Below the pieces are notes generated by a model, which was not told the origin of the DNA, ran no database searches, and was given only the letters and a program-made list of their open reading frames with translations. Source: Bilabrum cf. latius (Eukaryota). Taken from it: a DNA stretch of 45,322 bases. The stretch lies in assembly GCA_965178125.1 (NCBI GenBank), contig OZ237753.1:1054001-1099322 (forward strand), written 5' to 3'. Shown here piece after piece: positions 7,284-45,322 of this stretch; within the stretch, counting starts at the first letter, position 1; every line of letters starts with the position of its first letter. The translations under genes were made by a program, and so were the position numbers.

Positions 7284-7424
7284 GGCGAGCTCAGTGCACC
7301 AGTCCAACCTGTCGTTCGCGCCTGCGATCCCTATTACAGACTGCCCTTTGATTAAATCTGCACGTTATTTGAAACCCAAAAATTCAACCGCATGAATAAA
7401 ACTGTAGATCACGGGCGTGCTAAG

Positions 7425-10400: not shown

Positions 10401-10572
10401 CCGCACCGACCGCTTCAAGGACGCGGTGCTGTCGACTTGCTGGCACTGCTTCAGCGAGGAGGCGCTACAGGACCTAATCAAGCAACGCAAGCGCAGCTGC
10501 CCGTCTTGTGGGAAGCGCTTTGGTGCAGGGGATGTGCACAAGATCTTCATGACCGAGGCTGATGTGTCGTGA
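7425..10572 (+). CDS. BRE1: BRE1/RNF20-like coiled-coil E3 ubiquitin ligase with C-terminal RING; introns 7545-7633 and 7805-7899
   Basis: Long coiled-coil frame with 17 in-frame TAG and no TAA/TGA until TGA 10570; C-terminal LRCPV..KDAVLSTCWHCF..KRSCPSCGKRFGAGDVHKIFM matches the BRE1 RING pattern; introns are phase-compatible GTGAG...CAG. Confidence 0.8.
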
Positions 10573-18300: not shown

Positions 18301-18461
18301 TCACTTTGCGCACCAACAGAGCTCAAGAAGGAGCTACACGGCCTGGTTTCTGCGGGTCCATGCGCCAACCAAGAAACTGCAATGTCCTCGGTAGAATCAT
18401 TTTTTCGTACAAAAGAGAAACCAAATCGTAAATAGTCAATTCTTTCTAAATCCGCTTCCAT
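15354..18461 (-). CDS. RCC1-repeat (RLD) beta-propeller protein with a C-terminal extension
   Basis: Repeats GSLYCCGNGLNGQLG, VSCGHEYTLA..GRLWAWG, GRLFAAGRNSHG-TAG-LG, GRLYTWGSNMDGTL, VCCGPTHTLALDDTGRLFAWG, GDLYVWG in one frame crossing multiple TAGs; ends TGA 15354-15356. Confidence 0.82.
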
Positions 18462-18748
18462 AAGCTCTAGATCTTTCAGGTCGGGCCTCTATAGTACATA
18501 TCGAATCCATCGGTGCGCCGGTTGCAACCACTTATCTGCTTGAGCTTGATGAAGATGAATGCAACAAACATCAACTCACAACTTCAACTGTTACCTCCTG
18601 CTCAAGCTCCTTAGAGAAGCATATTAGTCGCGTTGGTGGATCCATCATGTAGCGTAAGTGCAAGAAATTGAGCATCTTTCATCCATTCCTGCCTGCAGGC
18701 GAATCAAGATGCCCCAGCTTGCTATTGCACCCAGTTGGCAAGATTGAA

Positions 18749-25054: not shown

Positions 25055-26760
25055 ATGCCAAAGCGTTTCTCAGGCAATGATCTAGGAGGCTTATCGTTTA
25101 CTTCGTCAGAAAGGTGAGTGCTGTGACAAACTGCGCATACTACACGAAATAATGTTGATCCTCAATATTTCCGGAGTAGTCTTCGCGTTCGATTGATCAT
25201 CTATTTTTGCGCAGCAAAACCGGATTAAAGCGACCGAGTCAAAAGGGTGGTGGTCCACCTAAGCGAGCATTTAGGTACCGAGCCGGCAAGGTCCCTGATT
25301 GGGCGCAACAGGACACTGTAGGGCTTGCGGGGCAGGCTTCGAAGCCCCCCACACTACCGGAACAGCGCTCGAAATTGCCTCCACGTCAGAGTCCCGACCA
25401 GTCGTCTACTTAGAGTACAGCATAGGGTCAAGTTGATCTTGAACCCGTGGGAGGTGTGGCCGAGTATACGTCGGAGAGAGGTGGTGTAAGTATCCCAGGC
25501 GAACGCTCCCCCCCGCAAGTACAGCAGTCTCCCCACTCACACCCTTCGGCAGTGCCTTAGAATCAATCAAATATAGACTCAGAGACGAGTACGAGCAGCC
25601 CGGATCCCGACTCAGATGATAATGGCACCAGTTCATCCGATGACGAAGCCGACGAGCTGGCTGCCCGTCGAGCGAGGATACTGGCAAGAAAGTAGGCGGC
25701 AGTAGCTGGACTTGTTCCAGCGTCTAGCCACGTGTTAGCATCAGCGACTCATTCGCCTGGTCCGTCCACTGCAGCAGCGGCTGCATCAGGGACACGAGCT
25801 GACACTCGACGTGCCACGGACCGGGAGCACCTGTCGCCCAGCTCTAGCAGCGGCGACAGCAGCGGGTCTGATAGCGATAGTGATAGCGATAGTGATAGTG
25901 ATAGTGATAGTGATAGTGATAGTGATAGTGAAAATGAGAGCAGGATGGCCTTTGGTCGGTTCCGCCGCCGACGCGACAGGTCCACAGTGAGGGAGCGGGA
26001 GGCCGAGGCGGCCCTGGAGGAAGCCCGGGCAGCGGCTGCGGCTGAACTGCAGGCGGAGCGCAAGTAGCGCAGCAAGCGTCTCGTTGCGCAGAGGCTAAGA
26101 GAGGAGGAGGAGGCCGCCGCCGCCGCTGCTAAGGCATCAGCCACTGCTGCCCATGGTCGGCCGGATGACACGGACCTCCCCCAGGAGGAGGAGGCTGACT
26201 TCGAGAGGTGGAGGGTGAGGGAGCTCCAGAGGGCGGTGAAGGACTGGAGGGAGAGACATGGTACCGGAAGATCTAGTGAAGCCGATGTAGCAGATCCAAA
26301 TATTAATGCCAGGGGGGGGGCGAACAACAACCGCACTGGCCCTGGTCCTGCATCTGGCTCTGGTTCAGGCCCTGGCAGGCCATCGAGAGGGTTCATGCAG
26401 AAGTACTACCACCGCGGTGCTTTCTACATGGACGATGACTCGGTTGCATAGGACCCTAGCGACGTGAGGCACAAGGCCAGCGAGTATGCAGCCGGGCGCA
26501 CTGGCTAGGACCTAGGCATGAACAAGGTGCTTATGCCCAAGATGATGCAGGTCAGGGACTTTGGCAGGAGGAGCCGCAGCAAATGGACACACCTTTCGAA
26601 CGAAGACACATCGGCAGAGGGCGAGCGCTTGCGAGCTCGACTAGCCCAGCGAATGGCGGATGATGCCAAGCAGGGACTTGCATCCCAGTCCATCCACGTG
26701 CGACGTGCTGCCGAGACGGCCATAGAAGAGGCAGAGACCCGTCGATCTGGCCGTGGGTGA
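25055..26760 (+). CDS. MFAP1: MFAP1/Spp381 spliceosomal B-complex protein; intron 25114-25214; last gene before the telomeric region
   Basis: RYRAGKVPDWA, DDTD..EEEADFERWRVRELQR, FMQKYYHRGAFY, NKVLMPKMMQVRDFGRRSRSKWTHLSNEDT; 7 in-frame TAGs (25411, 25423, 25558, 25693, 26065, 26449, 26506); ends TGA. Confidence 0.9.
25870..25930 (+). repeat. (GATAGY)n coding microsatellite giving a (DS)n tract in MFAP1
   Basis: About 10 tandem GATAGC/GATAGT units. Confidence 0.85.
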
Positions 26761-26880
26761 CCGTCCTCCCATTGGTTTGGTCACAGCAATGTATCAATAG
26801 TGCGGCCAAACAGGATTCTCTTGACCTCTTCAATATCCCGGATACGCTTATCACCGCCTATCCACCATCCCAGGGTTCTA

Positions 26881-27236
26881 GGCCCCATCCACCGCGCTGC
26901 CCACCAACCCGCTGACCACTCAACCACCAATCTGGGCCCCATCCACCGCGCTGTCCACCAACCCGCTGGCCACCCAACCACCACTCTGGGCCCAATCCAC
27001 CGCGCTGCCCACCAACCCGCTGACCACTCAACCACCAATCTGGGCCCCATCCACCGCGCTGCCCACCAACCCGCTGGCCACCCAACCACCACTCTGGGCC
27101 CAATCCACCGCGCTGCCCACCAACCCGCTGACCACTCAACCACCAATCTGGGCCCCATCCACCGCGCTGTCCACCAACCCGCTGGCCACCCAACCACCAA
27201 TCTGGGCCCCATCCACCGCGCTGCCCACCAACCCGC
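26881..27236. repeat. 54-bp subtelomeric minisatellite, ~6.6 copies, alternating variants (108-bp dimer)
   Basis: Unit GGCCCCATCCACCGCGCTGCCCACCAACCCGCTGACCACTCAACCACCAATCTG recurs at 26881, 26935 and onward; cut off by TTAGGG at 27237. Confidence 0.92.
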
Positions 27237-27281
27237 TTAGGGTTTAGGGTTAGGGTTAGGATTAGGGTTAGGGTTAGGGTT
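27237..27281 (+). repeat. Innermost short telomeric tract with variant units (TTTAGGG, TTAGGA)
   Basis: About 7 TTAGGG-like units. Confidence 0.9.
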
Positions 27282-28058
27282 AAGGGCACGCTGGAGCTGC
27301 AGGCTGGTTGCGATGAGGAGCAGAGCCTGGAGGCGCTCATGAATGGGCAGCTGTCGACCTTGCGCGATACAGTGGGCAACATGTGCATGCAGGAGCTGCC
27401 AAGCCACAACGCAGCGCGCATCATGGCAACATGTGGGTCGAAGGGCAGTGTTCTGAATATCTGCCAGATGACGGCTTGCGTGGGGCAGCAGAACGTAGGG
27501 GGCAAGCGCATTCCCGAGGGATTCGTGAGCCGCACCCTCCCCATTTTTAGAACAGGGGCCAAGGAGCCTGCGGCCAAAGGGTTCGTTGCGAATAGCTTCC
27601 GGTCCGGTCTGAATGCCACCGAGTTTTTCTTCCATACGATGGGTGGCCGGGAGGGGCTCGTGGATACCGCGGTGAAGACGGCCGAGACGGGGTACATGCA
27701 GCGCCGGATGGTCAAGGCGCTGGAGGACCTGTCTGTGCAGTACGACAACACCGTGCGGACGTCGAATGGAGACGTGGTGCAGACAATCTACGGGGATGAC
27801 TCCCTTGATCCGGGCCAGATGGAGAGCAATGGCAGGCCGGTGCACCTGGACCGGCTGTGGACGAACGTGCAGAATGACATGCCGTGCCCTGAGGAGCCAC
27901 CTTTGGGCAAGACGGAGATCGGGGAGGTGGTGGCCGCGGAGATGAAGTCGAACGTGTGGAAACCTTTGAACACGGACAGTTAGGGCAGTCGCGGGGCGCT
28001 AGCTGGTGGTCCCAAGTTCTGCGAAGACGTCAAAGAGTTCATGACAGGTCTGGCAGGC
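27282..28058 (+). pseudogene. RPC1: Internal fragment of RPC1 (funnel/bridge-helix region) flanked by telomeric repeats
   Basis: [91 protein letters not shown]; the frame is open from the junction and continues through TAG 27981 to KFCEDVKEFMTGLAG; both ends cut by TTAGGG. Confidence 0.9.
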
Positions 28059-28627
28059 TAGGGGTTAGGGTAGGGTTAGGGTTAGGGTTAGGGTTAGGGT
28101 TAGGGTTAGGGTTAGGGTTAGGGTTAGGGTTAGGGTTAGGGTTAGGGTTAGGGTTAGGGTTAGGGTTAGGGTTAGGGTTAGGGTTAGGGTTAGGGTTAGG
28201 GTTAGGGTTAGGGTTAGGGTTAGGGTTAGGGTTAGGGTTAGGGTTAGGGTTAGGGTTAGGGTTAGGGTTAGGGTTAGGGTTAGGGTTAGGGTTAGGGTTA
28301 GGGTTAGGGTTAGGGTTAGGGTTAGGGTTAGGGTTAGGGTTAGGGTTAGGGTTAGGGTTAGGGTTAGGGTTAGGGTTAGGGTTAGGGTTAGGGTTAGGGT
28401 TAGGGTTAGGGTTAGGGTTAGGGTTAGGGTTAGGGTTAGGGTTAGGGTTAGGGTTAGGGTTAGGGTTAGGGTTAGGGTTAGGGTTAGGGTTAGGGTTAGG
28501 GTTAGGGTTAGGGTTAGGGTTAGGGTTAGGGTTAGGGTTAGGGTTAGGGTTAGGGTTAGGGTTAGGGTTAGGGTTAGGGTTAGGGTTAGGGTTAGGGTTA
28601 GGGTTAGGGTTAGGGTTAGGGTTAGGG

Positions 28628-29725
28628 TATCTAATATAAAGTCAGGGACAGGGTCGGGGAAAAAATATTTTCATCTTCATTTTTTTGTCGAAAATGTGCC
28701 CTCTGCGATCTCAGCAACTAGAATAGGTATGAAGATGATTCAAACTGTTTTGGGATGGCCTAGGGCCATATCATGGGGCAAATGTTCCCCAGGTTCCGTT
28801 TTGACCGCGCGGCGACGATACTGGCTGATGAAGATTTACATGCCGAAAATGTGCCCTCTGCGATCTCAGCAACTAGAATAGGTATGAAGATGATTCAAAC
28901 TGTTTTGGGATGGCCTAGGGCCATATCATGGGGCAAATGTTCCCCAGGTTCCGTTTTGACCGCGCGGCGACGATACTGGCTGATGAAGATTTACATGCCG
29001 AAAATGTGCCCTCTGCGATCTCAGCAACTAGAATAGGTATGAAGATGATTCAAACTGTTTTGGGACGGCCTAGGGCCATATCATGGGGCAAATGTTCCCC
29101 AGGTTCCGTTTTGACCGCGCGGCGACGATACTGGCTGATGAAGATTTACATGCCGAAAATGTGCCCTCTGCGATCTCAGCAACTAGAATAGGTATGAAGA
29201 TGATTCAAACTGTTTTGGGACGGCCTAGGGCCATATCATGGGGCAAATGTTCCCCAGGTTCCGTTTTGACCGCGCGGCGACGATACTGGCTGATGAAGAT
29301 TTACATGCCGAAAATGTGCCCTCTGCGATCTCAGCAACTAGAATAGGTATGAAGATGATTCAAACTGTTTTGGGACGGCCTAGGGCCATATCATGGGGCA
29401 AATGTTTGCCAGGGTTTGTTTACATCATGCAGCGGAAGTATGGAGTTTTCAAACTCACCCGGTGGGGGTTTGCAAACCTACCCAAGGGGGTCTACAAACC
29501 TACACTGCTTGGTTCGAGAAGCTAGCGGTTATTGACCGATGTTAGATGCCATGGCTCGTTCTACCTAGCTATTTGTATGCGTTAAACCCACTTTGCTAGA
29601 TACATTGCTTTGATATCAGGCTTCCATTGGGTGATGGTCAAGACTAAACAGAATGCCTCCTGGCTCGTACAAATGCGTCCTAAATTGGATCACTGGCAGG
29701 CACTTTGGCAAACTCCTCTCACAAG
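28628..29725. mobile_element. Telomere-inserted element copy 1 (155-bp subfamily A, ~4.6 units, plus unique tail)
   Basis: Common head at 28628; units contain GTGCCCTCTGCGATCTCAGCAACTAGAATAGG; tail ends ...CTCCTCTCACAAG. Confidence 0.75.
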
Positions 29726-29830
29726 GGTTTAGGGTTAGGGTTAGGGTTAGGGTTAGGGTTAGGGTTAGGGTTAGGGTTAGGGTTAGGGTTAGGGTTAGGG
29801 TTAGGGTTAGGGTTAGGGTTAGGGTTAGGG

Positions 29831-31295
29831 TATCTAATATAAAGTCAGGGACAGGGTCGGGGAAAAAAAATTTTCATCTTCACTTTTTGTCGAAAAAATG
29901 CGCGCGACGATCTCGGCAACCAGATGAGATATGAGGACCGTTCAAACTGCATCGGGACGGCCTGGGGGTACAATGTTGGGCAAATGTTCCCCAGGTTCCG
30001 TTTATACCGCGCGGCGACAATATGGCTGGACGAAGATTGTCATGCAGAAAAAATGCGCGCGACGATCTCGGCAACCAGATGAGATATGAAGACCGTTCAA
30101 ACTGCATCGGGACGGCCTGGGGGTACAATGTGGGGCAAATGTTCCCCAGGTTCCGTTTTGACCGCGCGGCGACAATATGGCTGGACAAAGATTGTCATGC
30201 AGAAAAAATGCGCGCGACGATCTCGGCAACCAGATGAGATATGAAGACCGTTCAAACTGCATCGGGACGGCCTGGGACCACAACAGGGGGCAAATGTTCC
30301 CCAGGTTCCGTTTTGACCGCGCGGCGACAATATGGCTGGACGAAGATTGTCATGCAGAAAAAATGCGCGCGACGATCTCGGCAACCAGATGAGATATGAA
30401 GACCGTTCAAACTGCATCGGGACGGCCTGGGGGTACAATGTGGGGCAAATGTTCCCCAGGTTCCGTTTTGACCGCGCGGCGACAATATGGCTGGACGAAG
30501 ATTGTCATGCAGAAAAAATGCGCGCGACGATCTCGGCAACCAGATGAGATATGAAGACCGTTCAAACTGCATCGGGACGGCCTGGGGGTACAATGTGGGG
30601 CAAATGTTCCCCAGGTTCCGTTTTGACCGCGCGGCGACAATATGGCTGGACGAAGATTGTCATGCAGAAAAAATGCGCGCGACGATCTCGGCAACCAGAT
30701 GAGATATGAAGACCGTTCAAACTGCATCGGGACGGCCTGGGGGTACAATGTGGGGCAAATGTTCCCCAGGTTCCGTTTTGACCGCGCGGCGACAATATGG
30801 CTGGACGAAGATTGTCATGCAGAAAAAATGCGCGCGACGATCTCGGCAACCAGATGAGATATGAAGACCGTTCAAACTGCATCGGGACGGCCTGGGGGTA
30901 CAATGTGGGGCAAATGTTCCCCAGGTTCCGTTTTGACCGCGCGGCGACAATATGGCTGGACGAAGATTGTCATGCAGAAAAAATGCGCGCGACGATCTCG
31001 GCAACCAGATGAGATATGAAGACCGTTCAAACTGCATCGGGACGGCCTGGGGGTACAATGTGGGGCAAATGTTCCCCAGGTTCCGTTTTGACCGCGCGGC
31101 GACAATATGGCTGGACGAAGATTGTCATGCAGAAAAAATGCGCGCGACGATCTCGGCAACCAGATGAGATATGAAGACCGTTCAAACTGCATCGGGACGG
31201 CCTGGGGGTACAATGTGGGGCAAATGTTCCCCAGGTTCCGTTTTGACCGCGCGGCGACAATATGGCTGGACGAAGATTGTCATGCAGAAAAAATG
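29831..31295. mobile_element. Element copy 2 (subfamily B, ~9 units, ends inside the array)
   Basis: Common head; units contain ATGCGCGCGACGATCTCGGCAACCAGATGAG. Confidence 0.75.
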
Positions 31296-31728
31296 GGTAG
31301 GGTTAGGGTTAGGGTTAGGGTTAGGGTTAGGGTTAGGGTTAGGGTTAGGGTTAGGGTTAGGGTTAGGGTTAGGGTTAGGGTTAGGGTTAGGGTTAGGGTT
31401 AGGGTTAGGGTTAGGGTTAGGGTTAGGGTTAGGGTTAGGGTTAGGGTTAGGGTTAGGGTTAGGGTTAGGGTTAGGGTTAGGGTTAGGGTTAGGGTTAGGG
31501 TTAGGGTTAGGGTTAGGGTTAGGGTTAGGGTTAGGGTTAGGGTTAGGGTTAGGGTTAGGGTTAGGGTTAGGGTTAGGGTTAGGGTTAGGGTTAGGGTTAG
31601 GGTTAGGGTTAGGGTTAGGGTTAGGGTTAGGGTTAGGGTTAGGGTTAGGGTTAGGGTTAGGGTTAGGGTTAGGGTTAGGGTTAGGGTTAGGGTTAGGGTT
31701 AGGGTTAGGGTTAGGGTTAGGGTTAGGG

Positions 31729-33263
31729 TATCTAATATAAAGTCAGGGACAGGGTCGGGGAAAAAATATTTTCATCTTCAATATTTGTCGAAAAACGACG
31801 TGCTACGATCTCGGTAACTACAGGTGATATGAAGACCGTTCAAACTGCATCGGGACGGCCTGGGGGCACAACATGGGCCAAATGTTCCCCAGGTTCCGTT
31901 CTGGCCGCGTGGCGCCGATATGGGTGTATGAAGAATTTCACACCGAAAAACGACGTGCTACGATCTCGGCAACTACAGGTGATATGAAGACCGTTCAAAC
32001 TGCATCGGGACGGCCTGGGGGCACAACATGGGCCAAATGTTCCCCAGGTTCCGTTCTGGCCGCGCGGCGCCGATATGGGTGTATGAAGAATTTCACACCG
32101 AAAAACGACGTGCTACGATCTCGGCAACTACAGGTGATATGAAGACCGTTCAAACTGCATCGGGACGGCCTGGGGGCACAACATGGGCCAAATGTTCCCC
32201 AGGTTCCGTTCTGGCCGCGCGGCGCCGATATGGGTGTATGAAGAATTTCACACCGAAAAACGACGTGCTACGATCTCGGCAACTACAGGTGATATGAAGA
32301 CCGTTCAAACTGCATCGGGACGGCCTGGGGGCACAACATGGGCCAAATGTTCCCCAGGTTCCGTTCTGGCCGCGCGGCGCCGATATGGGTGTATGAAGAA
32401 TTTCACACCGAAAAACGACGTGCTACGATCTCGGCAACTACAGGTGATATGAAGACCGTTCAAACTGCATCGGGACGGCCTGGGGGCACAACATGGGCCA
32501 AATGTTCCCCAGGTTCCGTTCTGGCCGCGCGGCGCCGATATGGGTGTATGAAGAATTTCACACCGAAAAACGACGTGCTACGATCTCGGCAACTACAGGT
32601 GATATGAAGACCGTTCAAACTGCATCGGGACGGCCTGGGGGCACAACATGGGCCAAATGTTCCCCAGGTTCCGTTCTGGCCGCGCGGCGCCGATATGGGT
32701 GTATGAAGAATTTCACACCGAAAAACGACGTGCTACGATCTCGGCAACTACAGGTGATATGAAGACCGTTCAAACTGCATCGGGACGGCCTGGGAGCACA
32801 ACATGGGCCAAATGTTCCCCAGGTTCCGTTCTGGCCGCGCGGCGCCGATATGGGTGTATGAAGATTTGCATGTTTATTCAATATGCATGGTTTATCTGTC
32901 AATTGTAGAATGGGTATGGTGTACATGACAGTTGTATTTGCTGTGTGGATTGCTTTGATCTAAGGTATTAACTGGTTGACACGTCAAGACTCAACAGAAT
33001 GCCTCCCGGCTCCTAATGCTGCGTCCGAATGGGTCAATGGCAGACACTTTGGCAAACTCCTCTCACAAGCTGGCCCAGCTGCCACTGACCTCAATTGCCG
33101 TCCCCCTGCCTGCCTCTCACTCGTCACCGAAAGCTGCTAGGAGCGCTTCCACAGCGTCGACGTCTGCCGCATTGAGATCTCCTTTCGCCGTCTTCTCGAG
33201 GGCCGTCATCAGGTTTGCGAACATTTCCAACTCGCGGTCCCTCTCTTCAATTGTTGCCTCGGT
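31729..33263. mobile_element. Element copy 3 (subfamily C, ~7 units, longest tail, including a minus-strand ORF end)
   Basis: Common head; units contain ACGACGTGCTACGATCTCGGCAACTACAGG; tail homologous to the copy 1 tail, then ~195 extra bp. Confidence 0.75.
33117..33263 (-). pseudogene. 5'-truncated C-terminal ORF fragment at the distal end of copy 3
   Basis: TEATIEERDRELEMFANLMTALEKTAKGDLNAADVDAVEALLAAFGDE-TGA, open up to the telomere junction, protein-like helical composition. Confidence 0.5.
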
Positions 33264-33646
33264 TTAGGTTAGGGTTAGGGTTAGGGTTAGGGTTAGGGTT
33301 AGGGTTAGGGTTAGGGTTAGGGTTAGGGTTAGGGTTAGGGTTAGGGTTAGGGTTAGGGTTAGGGTTAGGGTTAGGGTTAGGGTTAGGGTTAGGGTTAGGG
33401 TTAGGGTTAGGGTTAGGGTTAGGGTTAGGGTTAGGGTTAGGGTTAGGGTTAGGGTTAGGGTTAGGGTTAGGGTTAGGGTTAGGGTTAGGGTTAGGGTTAG
33501 GGTTAGGGTTAGGGTTAGGGTTAGGGTTAGGGTTAGGGTTAGGGTTAGGGTTAGGGTTAGGGTTAGGGTTAGGGTTAGGGTTAGGGTTAGGGTTAGGGTT
33601 AGGGTTAGGGTTAGGGTTAGGGTTAGGGTTAGGGTTAGGGTTAGGG

Positions 33647-34956
33647 TATCTAATATAAAGTCAGGGACAGGGTCGGGGAAAAAAAATTTTCATCTTCACT
33701 TTTTGTCGAAAAAATGCGCGCGACGATCTCGGCAACCAGATGAGATATGAGGACCGTTCAAACTGCATCGGGACGGCCTGGGGGTACAATGTTGGGCAAA
33801 TGTTCCCCAGGTTCCGTTTATACCGCGCGGCGACAATATGGCTGGACGAAGATTGTCATGCAGAAAAAATGCGCGCGACGATCTCGGCAACCAGATGAGA
33901 TATGAAGACCGTTCAAACTGCATCGGGACGGCCTGGGGGTACAATGTGGGGCAAATGTTCCCCAGGTTCCGTTTTGACCGCGCGGCGACAATATGGCTGG
34001 ACAAAGATTGTCATGCAGAAAAAATGCGCGCGACGATCTCGGCAACCAGATGAGATATGAAGACCGTTCAAACTGCATCGGGACGGCCTGGGACCACAAC
34101 AGGGGGCAAATGTTCCCCAGGTTCCGTTTTGACCGCGCGGCGACAATATGGCTGGACGAAGATTGTCATGCAGAAAAAATGCGCGCGACGATCTCGGCAA
34201 CCAGATGAGATATGAAGACCGTTCAAACTGCATCGGGACGGCCTGGGGGTACAATGTGGGGCAAATGTTCCCCAGGTTCCGTTTTGACCGCGCGGCGACA
34301 ATATGGCTGGACGAAGATTGTCATGCAGAAAAAATGCGCGCGACGATCTCGGCAACCAGATGAGATATGAAGACCGTTCAAACTGCATCGGGACGGCCTG
34401 GGGGTACAATGTGGGGCAAATGTTCCCCAGGTTCCGTTTTGACCGCGCGGCGACAATATGGCTGGACGAAGATTGTCATGCAGAAAAAATGCGCGCGACG
34501 ATCTCGGCAACCAGATGAGATATGAAGACCGTTCAAACTGCATCGGGACGGCCTGGGGGTACAATGTGGGGCAAATGTTCCCCAGGTTCCGTTTTGACCG
34601 CGCGGCGACAATATGGCTGGACGAAGATTGTCATGCAGAAAAAATGCGCGCGACGATCTCGGCAACCAGATGAGATATGAAGACCGTTCAAACTGCATCG
34701 GGACGGCCTGGGGGTACAATGTGGGGCAAATGTTCCCCAGGTTCCGTTTTGACCGCGCGGCGACAATATGGCTGGACGAAGATTGTCATGCAGAAAAAAT
34801 GCGCGCGACGATCTCGGCAACCAGATGAGATATGAAGACCGTTCAAACTGCATCGGGACGGCCTGGGGGTACAATGTGGGGCAAATGTTCCCCAGGTTCC
34901 GTTTTGACCGCGCGGCGACAATATGGCTGGACGAAGATTGTCATGCAGAAAAAATG
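33647..34956. mobile_element. Element copy 4 (subfamily B, ~8 units; same variants and end point as copy 2)
   Basis: Shares the diagnostic unit variants and the GCAGAAAAAATG-GGTAGGG junction with copy 2; 155 bp shorter. Confidence 0.75.
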
Positions 34957-35059
34957 GGTAGGGTTAGGGTTAGGGTTAGGGTTAGGGTTAGGGTTAGGGT
35001 TAGGGTTAGGGTTAGGGTTAGGGTTAGGGTTAGGGTTAGGGTTAGGGTTAGGGTTAGGG

Positions 35060-36054
35060 TATCTAATATAAAGTCAGGGACAGGGTCGGGGAAAAAATAT
35101 TTTCATCTTCACTTTTTGTCGAAAAAATACAACATAGGATCTCGGCAACCACAGGAGATATGAAGACCGTTGAAACGGCATTAGGACCGCCTAGGGGCAC
35201 AACATGGGGCAAATGCTCCCCAGGTTCCGTTTTTGTCGCGCGGCGCCGATATGGATCGATGAAGATTTACATGCTGCAAAAATACAACATAGGATCTCGG
35301 CAACCACAGGAGATATGAAGACCGTTGAAACGGCATTAGGACCGCCTAGGGGCACAACATGGGGCAAATGTTCCCCAGGTTCCGTTTTTGTCGCGCGGCG
35401 CCGATATGGATCGATGAAGATTTACATGCTGCAAAAATACAACATAGGATCTCGGCAACCACAGGAGATATGAAGACCGTTGAAACGGCATTAGGACCGC
35501 CTAGGGGCACAACATGGGGCAAATGTTCCCCAGGTTCCGTTTTTGTCGCGCGGTGCCGATATGGATCGATGAAGATTTACATGCTGCAAAAATACAACAT
35601 AGGATTTCGGCAACCACAGGAGATATGAAGACCGTTGAAACGGCATTAGGACCGCCTAGGGGCACAACATGGGGCAAATGTTCCCCAGGTTCCGTTTTTG
35701 TCGCGCGGTGCCGATATGGATCGATGAAGATTTACATGCTGCAAAAATACAACATAGGATCTCGGCAACCACAGGAGATATGAAGACCGTTGAAACGGCA
35801 TTAGGACCGCCTGGGGGCACAACATGGGGCAAATGTTCCCCAGGTTCCGTTTTTGTCGCGCGGCGCCGATATGGATCGATGAAGATTTACATGCTGCAAA
35901 AATACAACATAGGATCTCGGCAACCACAGGAGATATGAAGACCGTTGAAACGGCATTAGGACCGCCTAGGGGCACAACATGGGGCAAATGTTCCCCAGGT
36001 TCCGTTTTTGTCGCGCGGCGCCGATATGGATCGATGAAGATTTACATGCTGCAA
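35060..36054. mobile_element. Element copy 5 (subfamily D, ~6 units, followed by G10)
   Basis: Common head; units contain AATACAACATAGGATCTCGGCAACCACAGGAG. Confidence 0.75.
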
Positions 36055-36365
36055 GGGGGGGGGGTTAAGGGTTAGGGTTAGGGTTAGGGTTAGGGTTAGG
36101 GTTAGGGTTAGGGTTAGGGTTAGGGTTAGGGTTAGGGTTAGGGTTAGGGTTAGGGTTAGGGTTAGGGTTAGGGTTAGGGTTAGGGTTAGGGTTAGGGTTA
36201 GGGTTAGGGTTAGGGTTAGGGTTAGGGTTAGGGTTAGGGTTAGGGTTAGGGTTAGGGTTAGGGTTAGGGTTAGGGTTAGGGTTAGGGTTAGGGTTAGGGT
36301 TAGGGTTAGGGTTAGGGTTAGGGTTAGGGTTAGGGTTAGGGTTAGGGTTAGGGTTAGGGTTAGGG

Positions 36366-37360
36366 TATCTAATATAAAGTCAGGGACAGGGTCGGGGAAA
36401 AAATATTTTCATCTTCACTTTTTGTCGAAAAAATACAACATAGGATCTCGGCAACCACAGGAGATATGAAGACCGTTGAAACGGCATTAGGACCGCCTAG
36501 GGGCACAACATGGGGCAAATGCTCCCCAGGTTCCGTTTTTGTCGCGCGGCGCCGATATGGATCGATGAAGATTTACATGCTGCAAAAATACAACATAGGA
36601 TCTCGGCAACCACAGGAGATATGAAGACCGTTGAAACGGCATTAGGACCGCCTAGGGGCACAACATGGGGCAAATGTTCCCCAGGTTCCGTTTTTGTCGC
36701 GCGGCGCCGATATGGATCGATGAAGATTTACATGCTGCAAAAATACAACATAGGATCTCGGCAACCACAGGAGATATGAAGACCGTTGAAACGGCATTAG
36801 GACCGCCTAGGGGCACAACATGGGGCAAATGTTCCCCAGGTTCCGTTTTTGTCGCGCGGTGCCGATATGGATCGATGAAGATTTACATGCTGCAAAAATA
36901 CAACATAGGATTTCGGCAACCACAGGAGATATGAAGACCGTTGAAACGGCATTAGGACCGCCTAGGGGCACAACATGGGGCAAATGTTCCCCAGGTTCCG
37001 TTTTTGTCGCGCGGTGCCGATATGGATCGATGAAGATTTACATGCTGCAAAAATACAACATAGGATCTCGGCAACCACAGGAGATATGAAGACCGTTGAA
37101 ACGGCATTAGGACCGCCTGGGGGCACAACATGGGGCAAATGTTCCCCAGGTTCCGTTTTTGTCGCGCGGCGCCGATATGGATCGATGAAGATTTACATGC
37201 TGCAAAAATACAACATAGGATCTCGGCAACCACAGGAGATATGAAGACCGTTGAAACGGCATTAGGACCGCCTAGGGGCACAACATGGGGCAAATGTTCC
37301 CCAGGTTCCGTTTTTGTCGCGCGGCGCCGATATGGATCGATGAAGATTTACATGCTGCAA
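36366..37360. mobile_element. Element copy 6 (duplicate of copy 5)
   Basis: 1306-bp period, same variants and G10 junction. Confidence 0.75.
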
Positions 37361-37671
37361 GGGGGGGGGGTTAAGGGTTAGGGTTAGGGTTAGGGTTAGG
37401 GTTAGGGTTAGGGTTAGGGTTAGGGTTAGGGTTAGGGTTAGGGTTAGGGTTAGGGTTAGGGTTAGGGTTAGGGTTAGGGTTAGGGTTAGGGTTAGGGTTA
37501 GGGTTAGGGTTAGGGTTAGGGTTAGGGTTAGGGTTAGGGTTAGGGTTAGGGTTAGGGTTAGGGTTAGGGTTAGGGTTAGGGTTAGGGTTAGGGTTAGGGT
37601 TAGGGTTAGGGTTAGGGTTAGGGTTAGGGTTAGGGTTAGGGTTAGGGTTAGGGTTAGGGTTAGGGTTAGGG

Positions 37672-38666
37672 TATCTAATATAAAGTCAGGGACAGGGTCG
37701 GGGAAAAAATATTTTCATCTTCACTTTTTGTCGAAAAAATACAACATAGGATCTCGGCAACCACAGGAGATATGAAGACCGTTGAAACGGCATTAGGACC
37801 GCCTAGGGGCACAACATGGGGCAAATGCTCCCCAGGTTCCGTTTTTGTCGCGCGGCGCCGATATGGATCGATGAAGATTTACATGCTGCAAAAATACAAC
37901 ATAGGATCTCGGCAACCACAGGAGATATGAAGACCGTTGAAACGGCATTAGGACCGCCTAGGGGCACAACATGGGGCAAATGTTCCCCAGGTTCCGTTTT
38001 TGTCGCGCGGCGCCGATATGGATCGATGAAGATTTACATGCTGCAAAAATACAACATAGGATCTCGGCAACCACAGGAGATATGAAGACCGTTGAAACGG
38101 CATTAGGACCGCCTAGGGGCACAACATGGGGCAAATGTTCCCCAGGTTCCGTTTTTGTCGCGCGGTGCCGATATGGATCGATGAAGATTTACATGCTGCA
38201 AAAATACAACATAGGATTTCGGCAACCACAGGAGATATGAAGACCGTTGAAACGGCATTAGGACCGCCTAGGGGCACAACATGGGGCAAATGTTCCCCAG
38301 GTTCCGTTTTTGTCGCGCGGTGCCGATATGGATCGATGAAGATTTACATGCTGCAAAAATACAACATAGGATCTCGGCAACCACAGGAGATATGAAGACC
38401 GTTGAAACGGCATTAGGACCGCCTGGGGGCACAACATGGGGCAAATGTTCCCCAGGTTCCGTTTTTGTCGCGCGGCGCCGATATGGATCGATGAAGATTT
38501 ACATGCTGCAAAAATACAACATAGGATCTCGGCAACCACAGGAGATATGAAGACCGTTGAAACGGCATTAGGACCGCCTAGGGGCACAACATGGGGCAAA
38601 TGTTCCCCAGGTTCCGTTTTTGTCGCGCGGCGCCGATATGGATCGATGAAGATTTACATGCTGCAA
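37672..38666. mobile_element. Element copy 7 (duplicate of copy 5)
   Basis: 1306-bp period, same variants and G10 junction. Confidence 0.75.
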
Positions 38667-38875
38667 GGGGGGGGGGTTAAGGGTTAGGGTTAGGGTTAGG
38701 GTTAGGGTTAGGGTTAGGGTTAGGGTTAGGGTTAGGGTTAGGGTTAGGGTTAGGGTTAGGGTTAGGGTTAGGGTTAGGGTTAGGGTTAGGGTTAGGGTTA
38801 GGGTTAGGGTTAGGGTTAGGGTTAGGGTTAGGGTTAGGGTTAGGGTTAGGGTTAGGGTTAGGGTTAGGGTTAGGG

Positions 38876-39652
38876 TATCTAATATAAAGTCAGGGACAGG
38901 GTCGGGGAAAAAATATTTTCATCTTCAATATTTGTCGAAAAACGACGTGCTACGATCTCGGCAACTACAGGTGATATGAAGACCGTTCAAACTGCATCGG
39001 GACGGCCTGGGGGCACAACATGGGCCAAATGTTCCCCAGGTTCCGTTCTGGCCGCGCGGCGCCGATATGGGTGTATGAAGAATTTCACACCGAAAAACGA
39101 CGTGCTACGATCTCGGCAACTACAGGTGATATGAAGACCGTTCAAACTGCATCGGGACGGCCTGGGGGCACAACATGGGCCAAATGTTCCCCAGGTTCCG
39201 TTCTGGCCGCGCGGCGCCGATATGGGTGTATGAAGAATTTCACACCGAAAAACGACGTGCTACGATCTCGGCAACTACAGGTGATATGAAGACCGTTCAA
39301 ACTGCATCGGGACGGCCTGGGGGCACAACATGGGCCAAATGTTCCCCAGGTTCCGTTCTGGCCGCGCGGCGCCGATATGGGTGTATGAAGAATTTCACAC
39401 CGAAAAACGACGTGCTACGATCTCGGCAACTACAGGTGATATGAAGACCGTTCAAACTGCATCGGGACGGCCTGGGGGCACAACATGGGCCAAATATTCC
39501 CCAGGTTCCGTTCTGGCCGCGCGGCGCTGATATGGGTGTATGAAGATTTGCATGTCTATTCAATATGCATGGTTTATCTGTCAATTGTAGAATGGGGATG
39601 GTGTACATGACAGTTGTATTTGCTGTGTGGATTGCTTTGATCTAAGGTATTA
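38876..39652. mobile_element. Element copy 8 (subfamily C, ~4 units, partial tail)
   Basis: Tail matches copy 3 up to TCTAAGGTATTA, then telomeric repeats. Confidence 0.75.
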
Positions 39653-39901
39653 GGGTTAAGGTTAGGGTTAGGGTTAGGGTTAGGGTTAGGGTTAGGGTTA
39701 GGGTTAGGGTTAGGGTTAGGGTTAGGGTTAGGGTTAGGGTTAGGGTTAGGGTTAGGGTTAGGGTTAGGGTTAGGGTTAGGGTTAGGGTTAGGGTTAGGGT
39801 TAGGGTTAGGGTTAGGGTTAGGGTTAGGGTTAGGGTTAGGGTTAGGGTTAGGGTTAGGGTTAGGGTTAGGGTTAGGGTTAGGGTTAGGGTTAGGGTTAGG
39901 G

Positions 39902-41656
39902 TATCTAATATAAAGTCAGGGACAGGGTCGGGGAAAAAAAATTTTCATCTTCACTTTTTGTCGAAAAAATGCGCGCGACGATCTCGGCAACCAGATGAGA
40001 TATGAGGACCGTTCAAACTGCATCGGGACGGCCTGGGGGTACAATGTGGGGCAAATGTTCCCCAGGTTCCGTTTTGACCGCGCGGCGACAATATGGCTGG
40101 ACGAAGATTGTCATGCAGAAAAAATGCGCGCAACGATCTCGGCAACCAGATGAGATATGAAGACTGTTCAAACTGCATCGGGACGGCCTGGGGGTACAAT
40201 GTTAGGCAAATGTTCCCCAGGTTCCGTTTATACCGCGCGGCGACAATATGGCTGGACGAAGATTGTCATGCAGAAAAAATGCGCGCGACGATCTCGGCAA
40301 CCAGATGAGATATGAAGACCGTTCAAACTGCATCGGGACGGCCTGGGACCACAACTGGGGGCAAATGTTCCCCAGGTTCCGTTTATACCGCGCGGCGACA
40401 ATATGGCTGGACGAAGATTGTCATGCAGAAAAAATGCGCGCGGCGATCTCGGCAACCAGATGAGATATGAAGACCGTTCAAACTGCATCGGGACGGCCTG
40501 GGACCACAACTGGGGGCAAATGTTCCCCAGGTTCCGTTTATACCGCGCGGCGACAATATGGCTGGACGAAGATTGTCATGCAGAAAAAATGCGCGCGACG
40601 ATCTCGGCAACCAGATGAGATATGAAGACCGTTCATACTGCATCGGGACGGCCTGGGGGTACAATGTGGGGCAAATGTTCCCCAGATTCCGTTTTGACCG
40701 CGCGGCGACAGTATGGGGGGACGAAGATTTTCAGGCAGAAAAAATGCGCGCGGCGATCTCGGCAACCACAGGAGATATGAAGACCGTTCAAACTGCATCG
40801 GGACGGCCTGGGACCACAACTGGGGGCAAATGTTCCCCAGGTTCCGTTTATACCGCGCGGCGACAATATGGCTGGACGAAGATTGTCATGCAGAAAAAAT
40901 GCGCGCGGCGATCTCGGCAACCAGATGAGATATGAAGACCGTTCAAACTGCATCGGGACGGCCTGGGACCACAACTGGGGGCAAATGTTCCCCAGGTTCC
41001 GTTTATTCCGCGCGGCGACAATATGGCTGGACGAAGATTGTCATGCAGAAAAAATGCGCGCGACGATCTCGGCAACCAGATGAGATATGAAGACCGTTCA
41101 TACTGCATCGGGACGGCCTGGGGGTACAATGTGGGGCAAATGTTCCCCAGATTCCGTTTTGACCGCGCGGCGACAGTATGGGGGGACGAAGATTTTCAGG
41201 CAGAAAAAATGCGCGCGGCGATCTCGGCAACCACAGGAGATATGAAGACCGTTCAAACTGCATCGGGACGGCCTGGGACCACAACAGGGGGCAAATGTTC
41301 CCCAGGTTCCGTTTATACCGCGCGGCGACAGTATGGTGGGACGAAGATTGTCATGCAGAAAAAATGCGCGCGGCGATCTCGGCAACCAGATGAGATATGA
41401 AGACCGTTCAAACTGCATCGGGACGGCCTGGGACCACAACTGGGGGCAAATGTTCCCCGTGATTCTATTACATCAAGCATTGCAAGTATGGGGTTTGCAC
41501 ACCTACATGGTTGGGTTTGCATACGTACATGGGTTCGGGTTAGGTAAGAGGTTTTCCTTAGGGGCGTTCATTAGCTGTAAATGAGATTTCTTGATTTCAG
41601 CCGTTCATTCGCACTTTGAGTCATCATCATGTGTCATGTGTGCGAAGTTTGGAGAA
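39902..41656. mobile_element. Element copy 9 (subfamily B variant, ~9.6 heterogeneous units, plus unique tail)
   Basis: Common head; B-type units with a 465-bp internal duplication; tail related to the start of the copy 1 tail. Confidence 0.75.
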
Positions 41657-42039
41657 TAGGGTTAGGGTTAGGGTTAGGGTTAGGGTTAGGGTTAGGGTTA
41701 GGGTTAGGGTTAGGGTTAGGGTTAGGGTTAGGGTTAGGGTTAGGGTTAGGGTTAGGGTTAGGGTTAGGGTTAGGGTTAGGGTTAGGGTTAGGGTTAGGGT
41801 TAGGGTTAGGGTTAGGGTTAGGGTTAGGGTTAGGGTTAGGGTTAGGGTTAGGGTTAGGGTTAGGGTTAGGGTTAGGGTTAGGGTTAGGGTTAGGGTTAGG
41901 GTTAGGGTTAGGGTTAGGGTTAGGGTTAGGGTTAGGGTTAGGGTTAGGGTTAGGGTTAGGGTTAGGGTTAGGGTTAGGGTTAGGGTTAGGGTTAGGGTTA
42001 GGGTTAGGGTTAGGGTTAGGGTTAGGGTTAGGGTTAGGG

Positions 42040-42816
42040 TATCTAATATAAAGTCAGGGACAGGGTCGGGGAAAAAATATTTTCATCTTCAATATTTGTC
42101 GAAAAACGACGTGCTACGATCTCGGCAACTACAGGTGATATGAAGACCGTTCAAACTGCATCGGGACGGCCTGGGGGCACAACATGGGCCAAATGTTCCC
42201 CAGGTTCCGTTCTGGCCGCGCGGCGCCGATATGGGTGTATGAAGAATTTCACACCGAAAAACGACGTGCTACGATCTCGGCAACTACAGGTGATATGAAG
42301 ACCGTTCAAACTGCATCGGGACGGCCTGGGGGCACAACATGGGCCAAATGTTCCCCAGGTTCCGTTCTGGCCGCGCGGCGCCGATATGGGTGTATGAAGA
42401 ATTTCACACCGAAAAACGACGTGCTACGATCTCGGCAACTACAGGTGATATGAAGACCGTTCAAACTGCATCGGGACGGCCTGGGGGCACAACATGGGCC
42501 AAATGTTCCCCAGGTTCCGTTCTGGCCGCGCGGCGCCGATATGGGTGTATGAAGAATTTCACACCGAAAAACGACGTGCTACGATCTCGGCAACTACAGG
42601 TGATATGAAGACCGTTCAAACTGCATCGGGACGGCCTGGGGGCACAACATGGGCCAAATATTCCCCAGGTTCCGTTCTGGCCGCGCGGCGCTGATATGGG
42701 TGTATGAAGATTTGCATGTCTATTCAATATGCATGGTTTATCTGTCAATTGTAGAATGGGGATGGTGTACATGACAGTTGTATTTGCTGTGTGGATTGCT
42801 TTGATCTAAGGTATTA
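42040..42816. mobile_element. Element copy 10 (duplicate of copy 8)
   Basis: 3164-bp period. Confidence 0.75.
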
Positions 42817-43065
42817 GGGTTAAGGTTAGGGTTAGGGTTAGGGTTAGGGTTAGGGTTAGGGTTAGGGTTAGGGTTAGGGTTAGGGTTAGGGTTAGGGTTA
42901 GGGTTAGGGTTAGGGTTAGGGTTAGGGTTAGGGTTAGGGTTAGGGTTAGGGTTAGGGTTAGGGTTAGGGTTAGGGTTAGGGTTAGGGTTAGGGTTAGGGT
43001 TAGGGTTAGGGTTAGGGTTAGGGTTAGGGTTAGGGTTAGGGTTAGGGTTAGGGTTAGGGTTAGGG

Positions 43066-44820
43066 TATCTAATATAAAGTCAGGGACAGGGTCGGGGAAA
43101 AAAAATTTTCATCTTCACTTTTTGTCGAAAAAATGCGCGCGACGATCTCGGCAACCAGATGAGATATGAGGACCGTTCAAACTGCATCGGGACGGCCTGG
43201 GGGTACAATGTGGGGCAAATGTTCCCCAGGTTCCGTTTTGACCGCGCGGCGACAATATGGCTGGACGAAGATTGTCATGCAGAAAAAATGCGCGCAACGA
43301 TCTCGGCAACCAGATGAGATATGAAGACTGTTCAAACTGCATCGGGACGGCCTGGGGGTACAATGTTAGGCAAATGTTCCCCAGGTTCCGTTTATACCGC
43401 GCGGCGACAATATGGCTGGACGAAGATTGTCATGCAGAAAAAATGCGCGCGACGATCTCGGCAACCAGATGAGATATGAAGACCGTTCAAACTGCATCGG
43501 GACGGCCTGGGACCACAACTGGGGGCAAATGTTCCCCAGGTTCCGTTTATACCGCGCGGCGACAATATGGCTGGACGAAGATTGTCATGCAGAAAAAATG
43601 CGCGCGGCGATCTCGGCAACCAGATGAGATATGAAGACCGTTCAAACTGCATCGGGACGGCCTGGGACCACAACTGGGGGCAAATGTTCCCCAGGTTCCG
43701 TTTATACCGCGCGGCGACAATATGGCTGGACGAAGATTGTCATGCAGAAAAAATGCGCGCGGCGATCTCGGCAACCAGATGAGATATGAAGACCGTTCAT
43801 ACTGCATCGGGACGGCCTGGGGGTACAATGTGGGGCAAATGTTCCCCAGATTCCGTTTTGACCGCGCGGCGACAGTATGGGGGGACGAAGATTTTCAGGC
43901 AGAAAAAATGCGCGCGGCGATCTCGGCAACCACAGGAGATATGAAGACCGTTCAAACTGCATCGGGACGGCCTGGGACCACAACTGGGGGCAAATGTTCC
44001 CCAGGTTCCGTTTATACCGCGCGGCGACAATATGGCTGGACGAAGATTGTCATGCAGAAAAAATGCGCGCGGCGATCTCGGCAACCAGATGAGATATGAA
44101 GACCGTTCAAACTGCATCGGGACGGCCTGGGACCACAACTGGGGGCAAATGTTCCCCAGGTTCCGTTTATTCCGCGCGGCGACAATATGGCTGGACGAAG
44201 ATTGTCATGCAGAAAAAATGCGCGCGACGATCTCGGCAACCAGATGAGATATGAAGACCGTTCATACTGCATCGGGACGGCCTGGGGGTACAATGTGGGG
44301 CAAATGTTCCCCAGATTCCGTTTTGACCGCGCGGCGACAGTATGGGGGGACGAAGATTTTCAGGCAGAAAAAATGCGCGCGGCGATCTCGGCAACCACAG
44401 GAGATATGAAGACCGTTCAAACTGCATCGGGACGGCCTGGGACCACAACAGGGGGCAAATGTTCCCCAGGTTCCGTTTATACCGCGCGGCGACAGTATGG
44501 TGGGACGAAGATTGTCATGCAGAAAAAATGCGCGCGGCGATCTCGGCAACCAGATGAGATATGAAGACCGTTCAAACTGCATCGGGACGGCCTGGGACCA
44601 CAACTGGGGGCAAATGTTCCCCGTGATTCTATTACATCAAGCATTGCAAGTATGGGGTTTGCACACCTACATGGTTGGGTTTGCATACGTACATGGGTTC
44701 GGGTTAGGTAAGAGGTTTTCCTTAGGGGCGTTCATTAGCTGTAAATGAGATTTCTTGATTTCAGCCGTTCATTCGCACTTTGAGTCATCATCATGTGTCA
44801 TGTGTGCGAAGTTTGGAGAA
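43066..44820. mobile_element. Element copy 11 (near-duplicate of copy 9)
   Basis: 3164-bp period; at least one substitution and one junction difference versus copy 9. Confidence 0.75.
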
Positions 44821-45096
44821 TAGGGTTAGGGGTTAGGGTTAGGGTTAGGGTTAGGGTTAGGGTTAGGGTTAGGGTTAGGGTTAGGGTTAGGGTTAGGGTT
44901 AGGGTTAGGGTTAGGGTTAGGGTTAGGGTTAGGGTTAGGGTTAGGGTTAGGGTTAGGGTTAGGGTTAGGGTTAGGGTTAGGGTTAGGGTTAGGGTTAGGG
45001 TTAGGGTTAGGGTTAGGGTTAGGGTTAGGGTTAGGGTTAGGGTTAGGGTTAGGGTTAGGGTTAGGGTTAGGGTTAGGGTTAGGGTTAGGGTTAGGG

Positions 45097-45139
45097 TATC
45101 TAATATAAAGTCAGGGACAGGGTCGGGGAAAAAATATTT
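45097..45139. mobile_element. Element copy 12: head only (~43 bp)
   Basis: TATCTAATATAAAGTCAGGGACAGGGTCGGGGAAAAAATATTT followed by AGGTTAGGG. Confidence 0.75.
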
Positions 45140-45322
45140 AGGTTAGGGTTAGGGTTAGGGTTAGGGTTAGGGTTAGGGTTAGGGTTAGGGTTAGGGTTAG
45201 GGTTAGGGTTAGGGTTAGGGTTAGGGTTAGGGTTAGGGTTAGGGTTAGGGTTAGGGTTAGGGTTAGGGTTAGGGTTAGGGTTAGGGTTAGGGTTAGGGTT
45301 AGGGTTAGGGTTAGGGTTAGGG
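45138..45322 (+). repeat. Final (TTAGGG)n tract, probable chromosome end
   Basis: Pure TTAGGG to the end of the window, G-strand running 5'->3' outward. Confidence 0.85.

Follow-up and report, generated by a model that had tools for sequence, protein, structure and literature searches.

The window analyzed here is a 45,322-nucleotide stretch of contig OZ237753.1 (assembly GCA_965178125.1, Bilabrum cf. latius), and our subject is a chain of twelve related units, E1 to E12, which alternate with TTAGGG tracts at its distal end. The window as a whole is a gene-dense, GC-rich (~55–68%) eukaryotic chromosome arm terminating in + strand TTAGGG, and it is a genuine chromosome end, the contig closing in telomere as a real end would. 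Ordinary host genes extend to ~26.76 kb; past them follow, in this order, a 54-bp repeat, a degenerate telomere tract, a 780-bp gene fragment, a 567-bp tract, the twelve units and a terminal tract (Table 1). Part of this array grew by plain DNA duplication.

An initial annotation made from the letters of this stretch had described twelve copies joined to TTAGGG at the same base, facing the same way and ranging from ~43 to ~1755 bp, and all of this is borne out. The 20-mer across the proximal junction (TTAGGG plus the first 14 bases of the head) occurs 12 times, each time with 0 mismatches and on the + strand, while none occurred in 100 shuffles; the bodies measure 43 to ~1756 bp. Perfect tracts of at least three TTAGGG repeats number 14 in the window, and 12 of these run straight into a head, always in one phase and without irregular repeats at any head junction. 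The two remaining tracts are 27262–27279, which ends at the gene fragment, and 45143–45322. Interstitial tracts are 96–552 bp long (16–92 repeats), and the tracts total ~3.6 kb. Two or more CCCTAA repeats were looked for on the + strand of the window and none was found.

A unit is laid out as a 62-bp head, 4–10 monomers of 155 bp and a tail. The head holds three consecutive telomere-like hexamers; no copy deviates within its first 38 nt, and across four subfamilies 55 of its 62 positions are invariant. The monomers share 93–99.6% identity within an element, and between subfamilies A, B, C and D the identity of the monomer consensus is 0.75–0.84, and they agree at 98 of 155 positions. Members of different subfamilies are intermingled in the array (A, B, C, B, D, D, D, C, B′, C, B′), which closes with a head-only copy. 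Poly(A) was found at neither element end, and no inverted repeat of at least 16 nt was found in 28628–33268, in agreement with the earlier description, which had reported neither poly(A) nor terminal inverted repeats.

We also considered the 155-bp monomer as a ribozyme-like or retrozyme-like structured RNA and dropped this candidate for lack of covariation support: RNAalifold applied to five monomers on both strands gave positive (penalising) covariation terms, with compensatory changes at 1 of 41 and 2 of 35 pairs. An Rfam scan of 26000–45322 on both strands at E≤1 returned 0 matches, hence no hammerhead ribozyme. Exact scans with 32 nt of the head had no match in metagenome, viral and genome contig collections, nor had a 22-nt conserved monomer core in the metagenome and viral collections; a single genome-contig match of this core, in a bacterial metagenome-assembled genome, was judged to be chance, its flanks being unrelated. 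No published description was found in the literature searched, which is a weak negative, and the element appears to be undescribed as far as this literature and these sequence collections show.

Table 1. Positions of the array units and other features within the window
Feature	Position	Strand	Body length (bp)	Description
C-terminal part of intact RNA polymerase III largest-subunit gene	1–1119	+		Matches human RPC1 residues 1218–1364, E=1.2e-51
Other host genes inward of the array				Protein O-mannosyltransferase, RING protein, RCC1-repeat protein, MFAP1-like protein
54-bp tandem repeat	26877–27237	+		C-rich, 6.7 copies, 92% matches; last unique-type subtelomeric sequence inward of the first telomere tract
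Oldest-looking interstitial tract	27237–27282	+		~7.5 repeats with TTTAGGG and TTAGGA variants; 92% matches, against 99–100% in other tracts
Fragment of RNA polymerase III largest-subunit gene	27282–28060	+		780 bp; matches human RPC1 residues 734–953, E=1e-79
Interstitial telomere tract	28062–28627	+		~567 bp (552 bp perfect); ends in phase at the E1 head
E1, subfamily A	28628–29725	+	~1098	Head, ~4.7 monomers, 320-bp tail broken directly after the conserved tail block
E2, subfamily B	29831–31295	+	~1465	Head and 9 monomers, broken within a monomer; junction same as E4
E3, subfamily C	31729–33260	+	~1532	Farthest-reaching: head, 7 monomers, tail, 3′ end of minus-strand reading frame
End of minus-strand reading frame	33120–33263	−		Last 48 codons of a protein-coding frame, stop TGA at 33117–33119; first codon overlaps the healing junction
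E4	33647–34956	+	~1310	E2-type copy, 8 monomers, 2 mismatches, same junction
E5, E6, E7, subfamily D	35060–38666	+	~995 each	Heads at 35060, 36366, 37672; identical bodies, G10-TTAAGGG junction; periods 1306, 1306, 1204 bp
Block of E8 and E9	38876–42039	+		E8, 240-bp tract, E9, 378-bp tract
E8, subfamily C	within 38876–42039	+	~777	Head at 38876; 4 monomers, broken in the tail at TTA microhomology
E9, subfamily B′	within 38876–42039	+	~1756	Head at 39902; 10 monomers and a different 200-bp tail
E10, E11	42040–45096	+	~777, ~1756	Heads at 42040, 43066; near-exact duplicate of the E8–E9 block, last telomere tract 107 columns shorter
E12	45097–45139	+	43	Head-only copy, healed after ...ATATTT
Terminal telomere tract	45143–45322	+		Runs off the window end

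Duplicated units and healed ends

The number of events behind the array is smaller than the number of copies. E5, E6 and E7 are identical (1012 of 1012 positions) including their odd G10-TTAAGGG junction, and units 5 and 6 are identical over 1306 bp with the telomere tract included. E8 equals E10 (786 of 786), E9 and E11 differ by 1 mismatch, and E2 and E4 share the same healed junction, with one monomer fewer in E4 and 2 mismatches between them. The last four of these full-bodied units form two blocks: the 3164-bp block 38876–42039 aligns with 42040–45096 over 3056 matches, 1 mismatch and one 107-column gap, which falls inside a telomere tract. Units with a healed junction in common can have arisen only through copying of DNA in which truncation and capping had already taken place, and therefore at least 5 of the 12 units are DNA-level copies of such truncated, capped units. 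In all three duplicate sets, moreover, the most distal copy precedes a shorter tract than its template does (96 vs 426, 192 vs 294 and 264 vs 378 bp), as expected from partial copying of a donor tract; with n=3 this pattern could be chance (1 in 8).

Two claims of the initial annotation need correction on these grounds. It held that the copies stop at different points, with TTAGGG restarting there, and the variable, telomerase-healed ends stand, but distinct distal junctions number only 7 among the 12 copies. It also viewed the array as a roughly chronological record of end-extension events. A rough age order from proximal to distal is plausible, because the most proximal tract is the most degenerate one (92%), but at least five units are secondary DNA copies and not separate additions.

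Assemblers have difficulty with exact repeats of 1306 and 3164 bp combined with telomere tracts, and one may ask whether the order and copy number of the units are an assembly artefact, namely real units and real junctions misjoined or over-expanded from several chromosome ends. The array order does rest on the assembly, and the public contigs with which we compared part of it are short (listed pieces of 41–539 bases). On the other side, tracts of 96–552 bp are short in comparison with the overlaps usually required, tandem repeats are more often collapsed than expanded during assembly, and the contig closes in telomere like a real end; seven different junctions and four or five subfamilies in one consistent orientation also argue against misjoining. 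We regard this explanation as improbable.

The distal junctions differ in character from the head junctions. The tract behind each distinct distal junction opens with one or two irregular repeats, and so does the tract behind the gene fragment; examples are TTTAGGG, TAGGG, a G10 run with TTAAGGG after it, TTAAGG and AGG. From there on the repeats are perfect up to the next head. Microhomology between the breaks and the telomere repeat amounts to 0–3 nt. These distal ends look like de novo telomerase addition to non-telomeric 3′ ends, and the long perfect tracts together with the healing junctions suggest that telomerase is active. Endonuclease-mediated insertion into a pre-existing telomere was considered as well and found less likely than terminal addition, because the distal junctions start with irregular repeats; the total tract length of ~3.6 kb was also taken into account in this judgement.

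The gene fragment at the base of the array, derived from the gene for the largest subunit of RNA polymerase III (Pol III), sits between two telomere tracts of the same orientation. Its frame is open if TAG is a sense codon, its distal end carries irregular repeats of the healing type, and it is oriented as the intact gene ~28 kb inward (window 1–1119), both lying on the + strand. No second copy of the fragment was found in 1–28100, which is to be expected of a source immediately upstream of the window. The fragment probably derives from the same chromosome arm and looks like a cis-duplication of the type known from the TALT sequences of Caenorhabditis elegans.

The minus-strand reading frame and the origin of the units

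For the origin of the array we tentatively prefer telomere-primed, DNA-templated copying, through break-induced replication (BIR), a displacement loop (D-loop) or unequal exchange, followed by telomerase healing, as in the yeast Y′ elements and TALT. According to this scheme, the last 17 kb would have grown by cycles in which a telomeric 3′ end primes, copying starts from one fixed point and stops early, and telomerase caps the end again. The template family would be a polar telomere-associated repeat composed of the 62-bp head, the 155-bp satellite, a tail and, on the opposite strand, the end (3′) of a gene present in multiple copies. A telomeric end would invade an interstitial TTAGGG tract on its own chromatid, the sister or another chromosome end, and would copy distally through the head by break-induced or D-loop replication. 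The copying end may dissociate within the next telomere tract and gain a ready-made telomere; alternatively, it may dissociate or break inside the element and then be healed by telomerase. Unequal exchange or rolling-circle copying would add exact tandem duplicates. Growth of this kind would resemble Y′ and TALT amplification and also the recombinational side of MoTeR arrays, though here telomerase is apparently active.

We favour this DNA-templated scheme because of the exact duplicates, the shorter-tract pattern, the captured gene fragment, the documented precedents at MoTeR-bearing telomeres (PMC7367193), parsimony, and the absence of a reverse transcriptase (RT) or ribozyme signal. Telomere-primed copying of the own chromosome predicts direct cis-duplication such as that of the Pol III fragment. 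Direct support exists for telomerase healing and for duplication at the DNA level, be it through interstitial telomere tracts or between them; DNA templating of the other seven units, and the choice among BIR, unequal exchange and rolling circle as the pathway, are what we infer. Copying of the BIR or ALT (alternative lengthening of telomeres) type was the second of three mechanisms proposed in the initial annotation, and the duplicates and the Pol III fragment between telomere tracts give it direct support.

The same annotation had stated that no enzyme is encoded. For the open reading frames (ORFs) of the window this holds: no RT, helicase, Rep or TERT domain was found in any of them, the window holding only 48 codons of the ORF of the element. 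What had been overlooked is this ORF itself. E3 runs beyond the tail block that it has in common with E1 into a GC-richer stretch, and this stretch holds the end of an ORF on the minus strand. Its codon-usage score is 0.391 per codon, a value reached by 0 of 580 off-frame host windows; in-frame windows of host genes average 0.194 ± 0.152 (n=116). Both substitutions inside the ORF in public contigs are synonymous third-position changes, and one public contig carries a −1/+1 indel pair two codons apart. Judged from its sequence, the ORF end in E3 is the 3′ end of a real gene pointing to the centromere. The satellite would lie in the 3′ untranslated region (UTR) of this gene, and the head would sit where the transcript would end.

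Comparison with public sequencing runs covered the E3 tail, a 563-bp stretch that none of the listed contig pieces spans as a whole. Nine runs, which belong to six studies, contain part of E3; no RNA run is listed among them. The ORF region occurs in multiple copies and was found in runs X1, X5 and X6, from three organisms: run X5 has an identical 191-bp piece together with diverged variants, and run X6 an identical 151-bp piece. In run X1, two contigs continue past the E3 break at 33260 with non-telomeric letters, and the 30 letters past the break keep the minus-strand frame open for 10 more codons (hand translation); copies reaching beyond E3 thus exist. Of the 44 loose contig ends, 14 were listed and none of these bore telomere repeats, a negative without weight because contigs of that sort may have been filtered out. 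The summed contig depth in this run is ~1,000,000 over the monomer (32700–32870) versus ~1,000 over the C-type tail, and these depths are not copy numbers. The 155-bp monomer is very abundant in run X1 and may also form large satellite arrays elsewhere in the genome.

Searches with the 48-residue C-terminus encoded by this ORF did not place it in a family. A word-index search among longer proteins gave 0 of 101 candidates at E≤1, and a HMMER scan of 1.84 billion representatives gave none at 1e-10; its two matches at E≤0.001 (1.5e-6 and 2.2e-4) each consist of 6–8 short stretches and are uninformative. Against the ESM Atlas, the best score was 0.82, none reached 0.9, and no family emerged.

The ORF is at the centre of the explanation that competes most seriously with DNA templating, and which we hold to be quite possible: the primary units may come from a telomere-specific retroelement, some of them being duplicated by recombination afterwards. 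A minus-strand RNA comprising the ORF, a 3′ UTR with the 155-bp repeats, the head and possibly CCCUAA transcribed from the adjacent tract would pair with the G-overhang or be used at an endonuclease nick in the telomere. Reverse transcription would start from the RNA 3′ end and stop early, giving a 5′ truncation, and telomerase would extend the cDNA, as in Athena/Coprina or MoTeR/FoTeR. The first mechanism of the initial annotation, reverse transcription in the manner of Athena/Coprina, belongs here; it fits the polarity and the ORF orientation, but neither an RT nor a hammerhead or any other Rfam match at E≤1 was found.

Several lines of evidence speak for this retroelement route and weigh against DNA templating. 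Polarity is strict, with one fixed proximal base in 12 of 12 copies, and the 3′ end and 3′ UTR of an ORF that scores as real coding sequence face the centromere, the fixed end lying at the point where transcription would finish; this is the orientation of every known telomeric retrotransposon. The head (terminal 38–52 nt) is far more conserved than the monomers and the rest of the element, and a conserved terminus of this kind is typical of recognition by an RT. All seven distinct copies stop within 1.76 kb, one of them after 43 bp, which resembles 5′ truncation under a polymerase of low processivity; BIR, by contrast, is normally a processive reaction. The array mixes several subfamilies, the ORF region occurs in multiple copies and is present in runs of three organisms, most documented natural arrays of such a pattern belong to retroelements, and the anatomy agrees with published MoTeR arrays and Athena/Coprina as far as the published accounts describe them. 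An encoded RT is possible, the ORF being known from its last 48 codons in the window, and the long-range order and copy number on which the duplication argument draws come from the assembly alone.

Several observations speak against a retroelement origin. Besides the missing RT in the window ORFs, the C-terminus without an informative relative, the empty Rfam scan and the monomers, in which covariation gave no sign of a structured RNA, there are 5 of the 12 units for which DNA copying is required anyway. The Pol III fragment lies in sense orientation on the G-strand, and an RNA route would need an antisense transcript of it; in addition, the codon usage of the ORF is fully host-like. DNA copying and a retroelement can coexist, as they do for MoTeRs. 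A more specific proposal, which we consider rather unlikely, is an undescribed lineage of telomere-specific retroelements in a protist that reads TAG as sense, with an unrecognised protein and a conserved 38–52-nt 3′ terminus bearing the three telomere-like hexamers. Either a polymerase of its own or a template-switching telomerase would copy the transcripts of this lineage onto intact G-overhangs, and telomerase would then cap the ends again.

The third mechanism proposed was strand transfer of the HUH/Helitron type, that is, rolling-circle copies with fixed 5′ and variable 3′ ends. One fixed and one variable end, and no terminal inverted repeats, would agree with it. We nevertheless disfavour it as very improbable and find no support for it: the window has no Rep or helicase, the only ORF is on the opposite strand, the distal ends are seven different healed breaks lying inside the satellite and not the defined 3′ end with a hairpin that Helitrons have, and the duplicates include telomere tracts. 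The usual Helitron target is the AT dinucleotide, and a perfect TTAGGG tract contains none.

Returning to telomere-primed DNA copying with telomerase healing, the role as a telomere-maintenance element suggested in the initial annotation is not supported as it was written, the long perfect tracts suggesting active telomerase. Few lineages are known in which natural chromosome ends combine active telomerase with non-telomeric inserts copied from a template. Here, one 18-kb stretch of an organism outside the usual models unites a family with fixed start and variable stop, healing scars, exact recombinational duplicates and a TALT-like captured gene fragment. The array could show whether ALT-like copying and telomerase normally coexist, and how a chromosome tolerates interstitial tracts of up to 92 perfect repeats. 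Should full-length copies encode a polymerase, the element would be a new telomeric retroelement lineage; if they encode none, it would be a natural analogue of Y′ and TALT with truncation and healing as the main mode. Under the proposal of an undescribed retroelement lineage, the ends would carry a partly chronological log of RNA-templated extensions working alongside telomerase.

The chromosome arm inward of the array

The host genes inward of the array use TAG as a sense codon. Seven long ORFs in 1–26760 contain 58 in-frame TAG and 0 in-frame TAA or TGA; examples are 7825–10572 (+) and 15354–18575 (−). The stop codon is TGA in 9 of 10 ORFs and TAA in 1 of 10. Read-through of TAG, translated as Gln by assumption, lifts the score of the RCC1-like domain (PF25390) from 86.5 to 156.5 bits (cut-off 150) and also uncovers the N-terminal PMT domain of the O-mannosyltransferase. 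A tRNA search of the window found none. In the O-mannosyltransferase ORF, 5334–7364 (−), the conserved PMT motif region is split by an in-frame stretch that resembles an unspliced intron held open by TAG read-through.

Among named sequences, the nearest relatives of the protein encoded by the Pol III fragment (27282–27983) come from oomycetes, diatoms and a labyrinthulomycete at ~60–69% identity, while proteins without names from metagenomes and Logan reach 74–75%. The source is thus probably a protist that has been little sampled, perhaps a stramenopile. The literature searched offered no usable candidate combining a reassigned TAG with TTAGGG telomeres, and the thraustochytrid Aurantiochytrium limacinum, whose telomeres are TTAGG and whose subtelomeres consist of rDNA, is a different organism. 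The 54-bp repeat lies directly proximal to the oldest, degenerate telomere tract and may be the original subtelomere.

Comparison with known telomeric systems

In its layout, the array resembles the telomere arrays of fungi, rotifers and worms. MoTeR1 and MoTeR2 of Magnaporthe oryzae (PMC7367193) and the FoTeRs of Fusarium oxysporum (PMC12857005) are described in these sources as lying in one orientation in TTAGGG telomeres with a fixed centromere-side end, with distal (5′) truncations capped by a de novo telomere and with interstitial tracts between elements. They are also described as growing by BIR, D-loop or rolling circle, with internal sequence duplicated at the terminus; for Magnaporthe, the account includes interstitial tracts made identical by D-loop or rolling-circle copying, particular truncated elements copied by BIR and, at unstable telomeres, internal sequences duplicated at the end (PMC7367193), a pattern that the Pol III fragment also matches. 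By those same accounts the fungal elements encode a non-LTR RT, which is not seen here in the window ORFs, and their intact copies bear variant telomere repeats or variable-number tandem repeats at the 5′ end. In the window all copies are truncated, a 155-bp satellite takes up the 3′ region, and the tracts have 16–92 repeats versus at most ~18 in those arrays. Shared with them are a fixed telomere-joined end and a single orientation, seen at 12 of 12 heads, and truncated copies capped by telomere, with 7 distinct truncation points.

In Athena and Coprina, which are endonuclease-deficient Penelope-like elements, truncated copies alternate with telomere repeats. Their published description places them in one orientation at chromosome ends, with the 3′ end joining telomere repeats (PMC8557442). 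It gives them an RT of the Penelope-like type and an adjacent hammerhead, whereas no such RT was found in the window and no hammerhead in the Rfam scan; it also gives them reverse-complement telomere repeats of their own, which here would be indistinguishable from the neighbouring tract. Membership in these retroelement families cannot be claimed, since the defining RT is unseen and a hammerhead was sought and not found.

TALT1 and TALT2 of C. elegans, as portrayed in PMC4595603, are genomic blocks between telomere-like tracts of the same orientation that were cis-duplicated to their own chromosome end; TALT1 contains part of a coding gene, and recombination then built tandem arrays of TALTs inside telomeres. 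The Pol III fragment at 27282–28060 has the same anatomy, and the duplicated E units behave like amplified TALTs. In contrast, TALTs were amplified in survivors deleted for telomerase according to that account, whereas the tracts and junctions here point to active telomerase, and TALT units have two fixed ends, whereas the present units have one fixed and one variable end.

The Y′ copies of Saccharomyces cerevisiae are mostly full length with two defined ends, and their helicase ORF points to the telomere. The present copies, in contrast, are truncated, with an ORF directed towards the centromere. The likeness lies in a subtelomeric gene-bearing repeat with a proximal interstitial tract, arranged in tandem with telomere between copies and amplified by recombination. 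Y′ elements are also named in the discussion of PMC4595603. As in Y′ and TALT, + strand TTAGGG borders all units here as well as the Pol III fragment, the exact tandem duplicates include the telomere tracts, and copying from a DNA donor is evident in the 5 of 12 units that share a healed junction with another unit.

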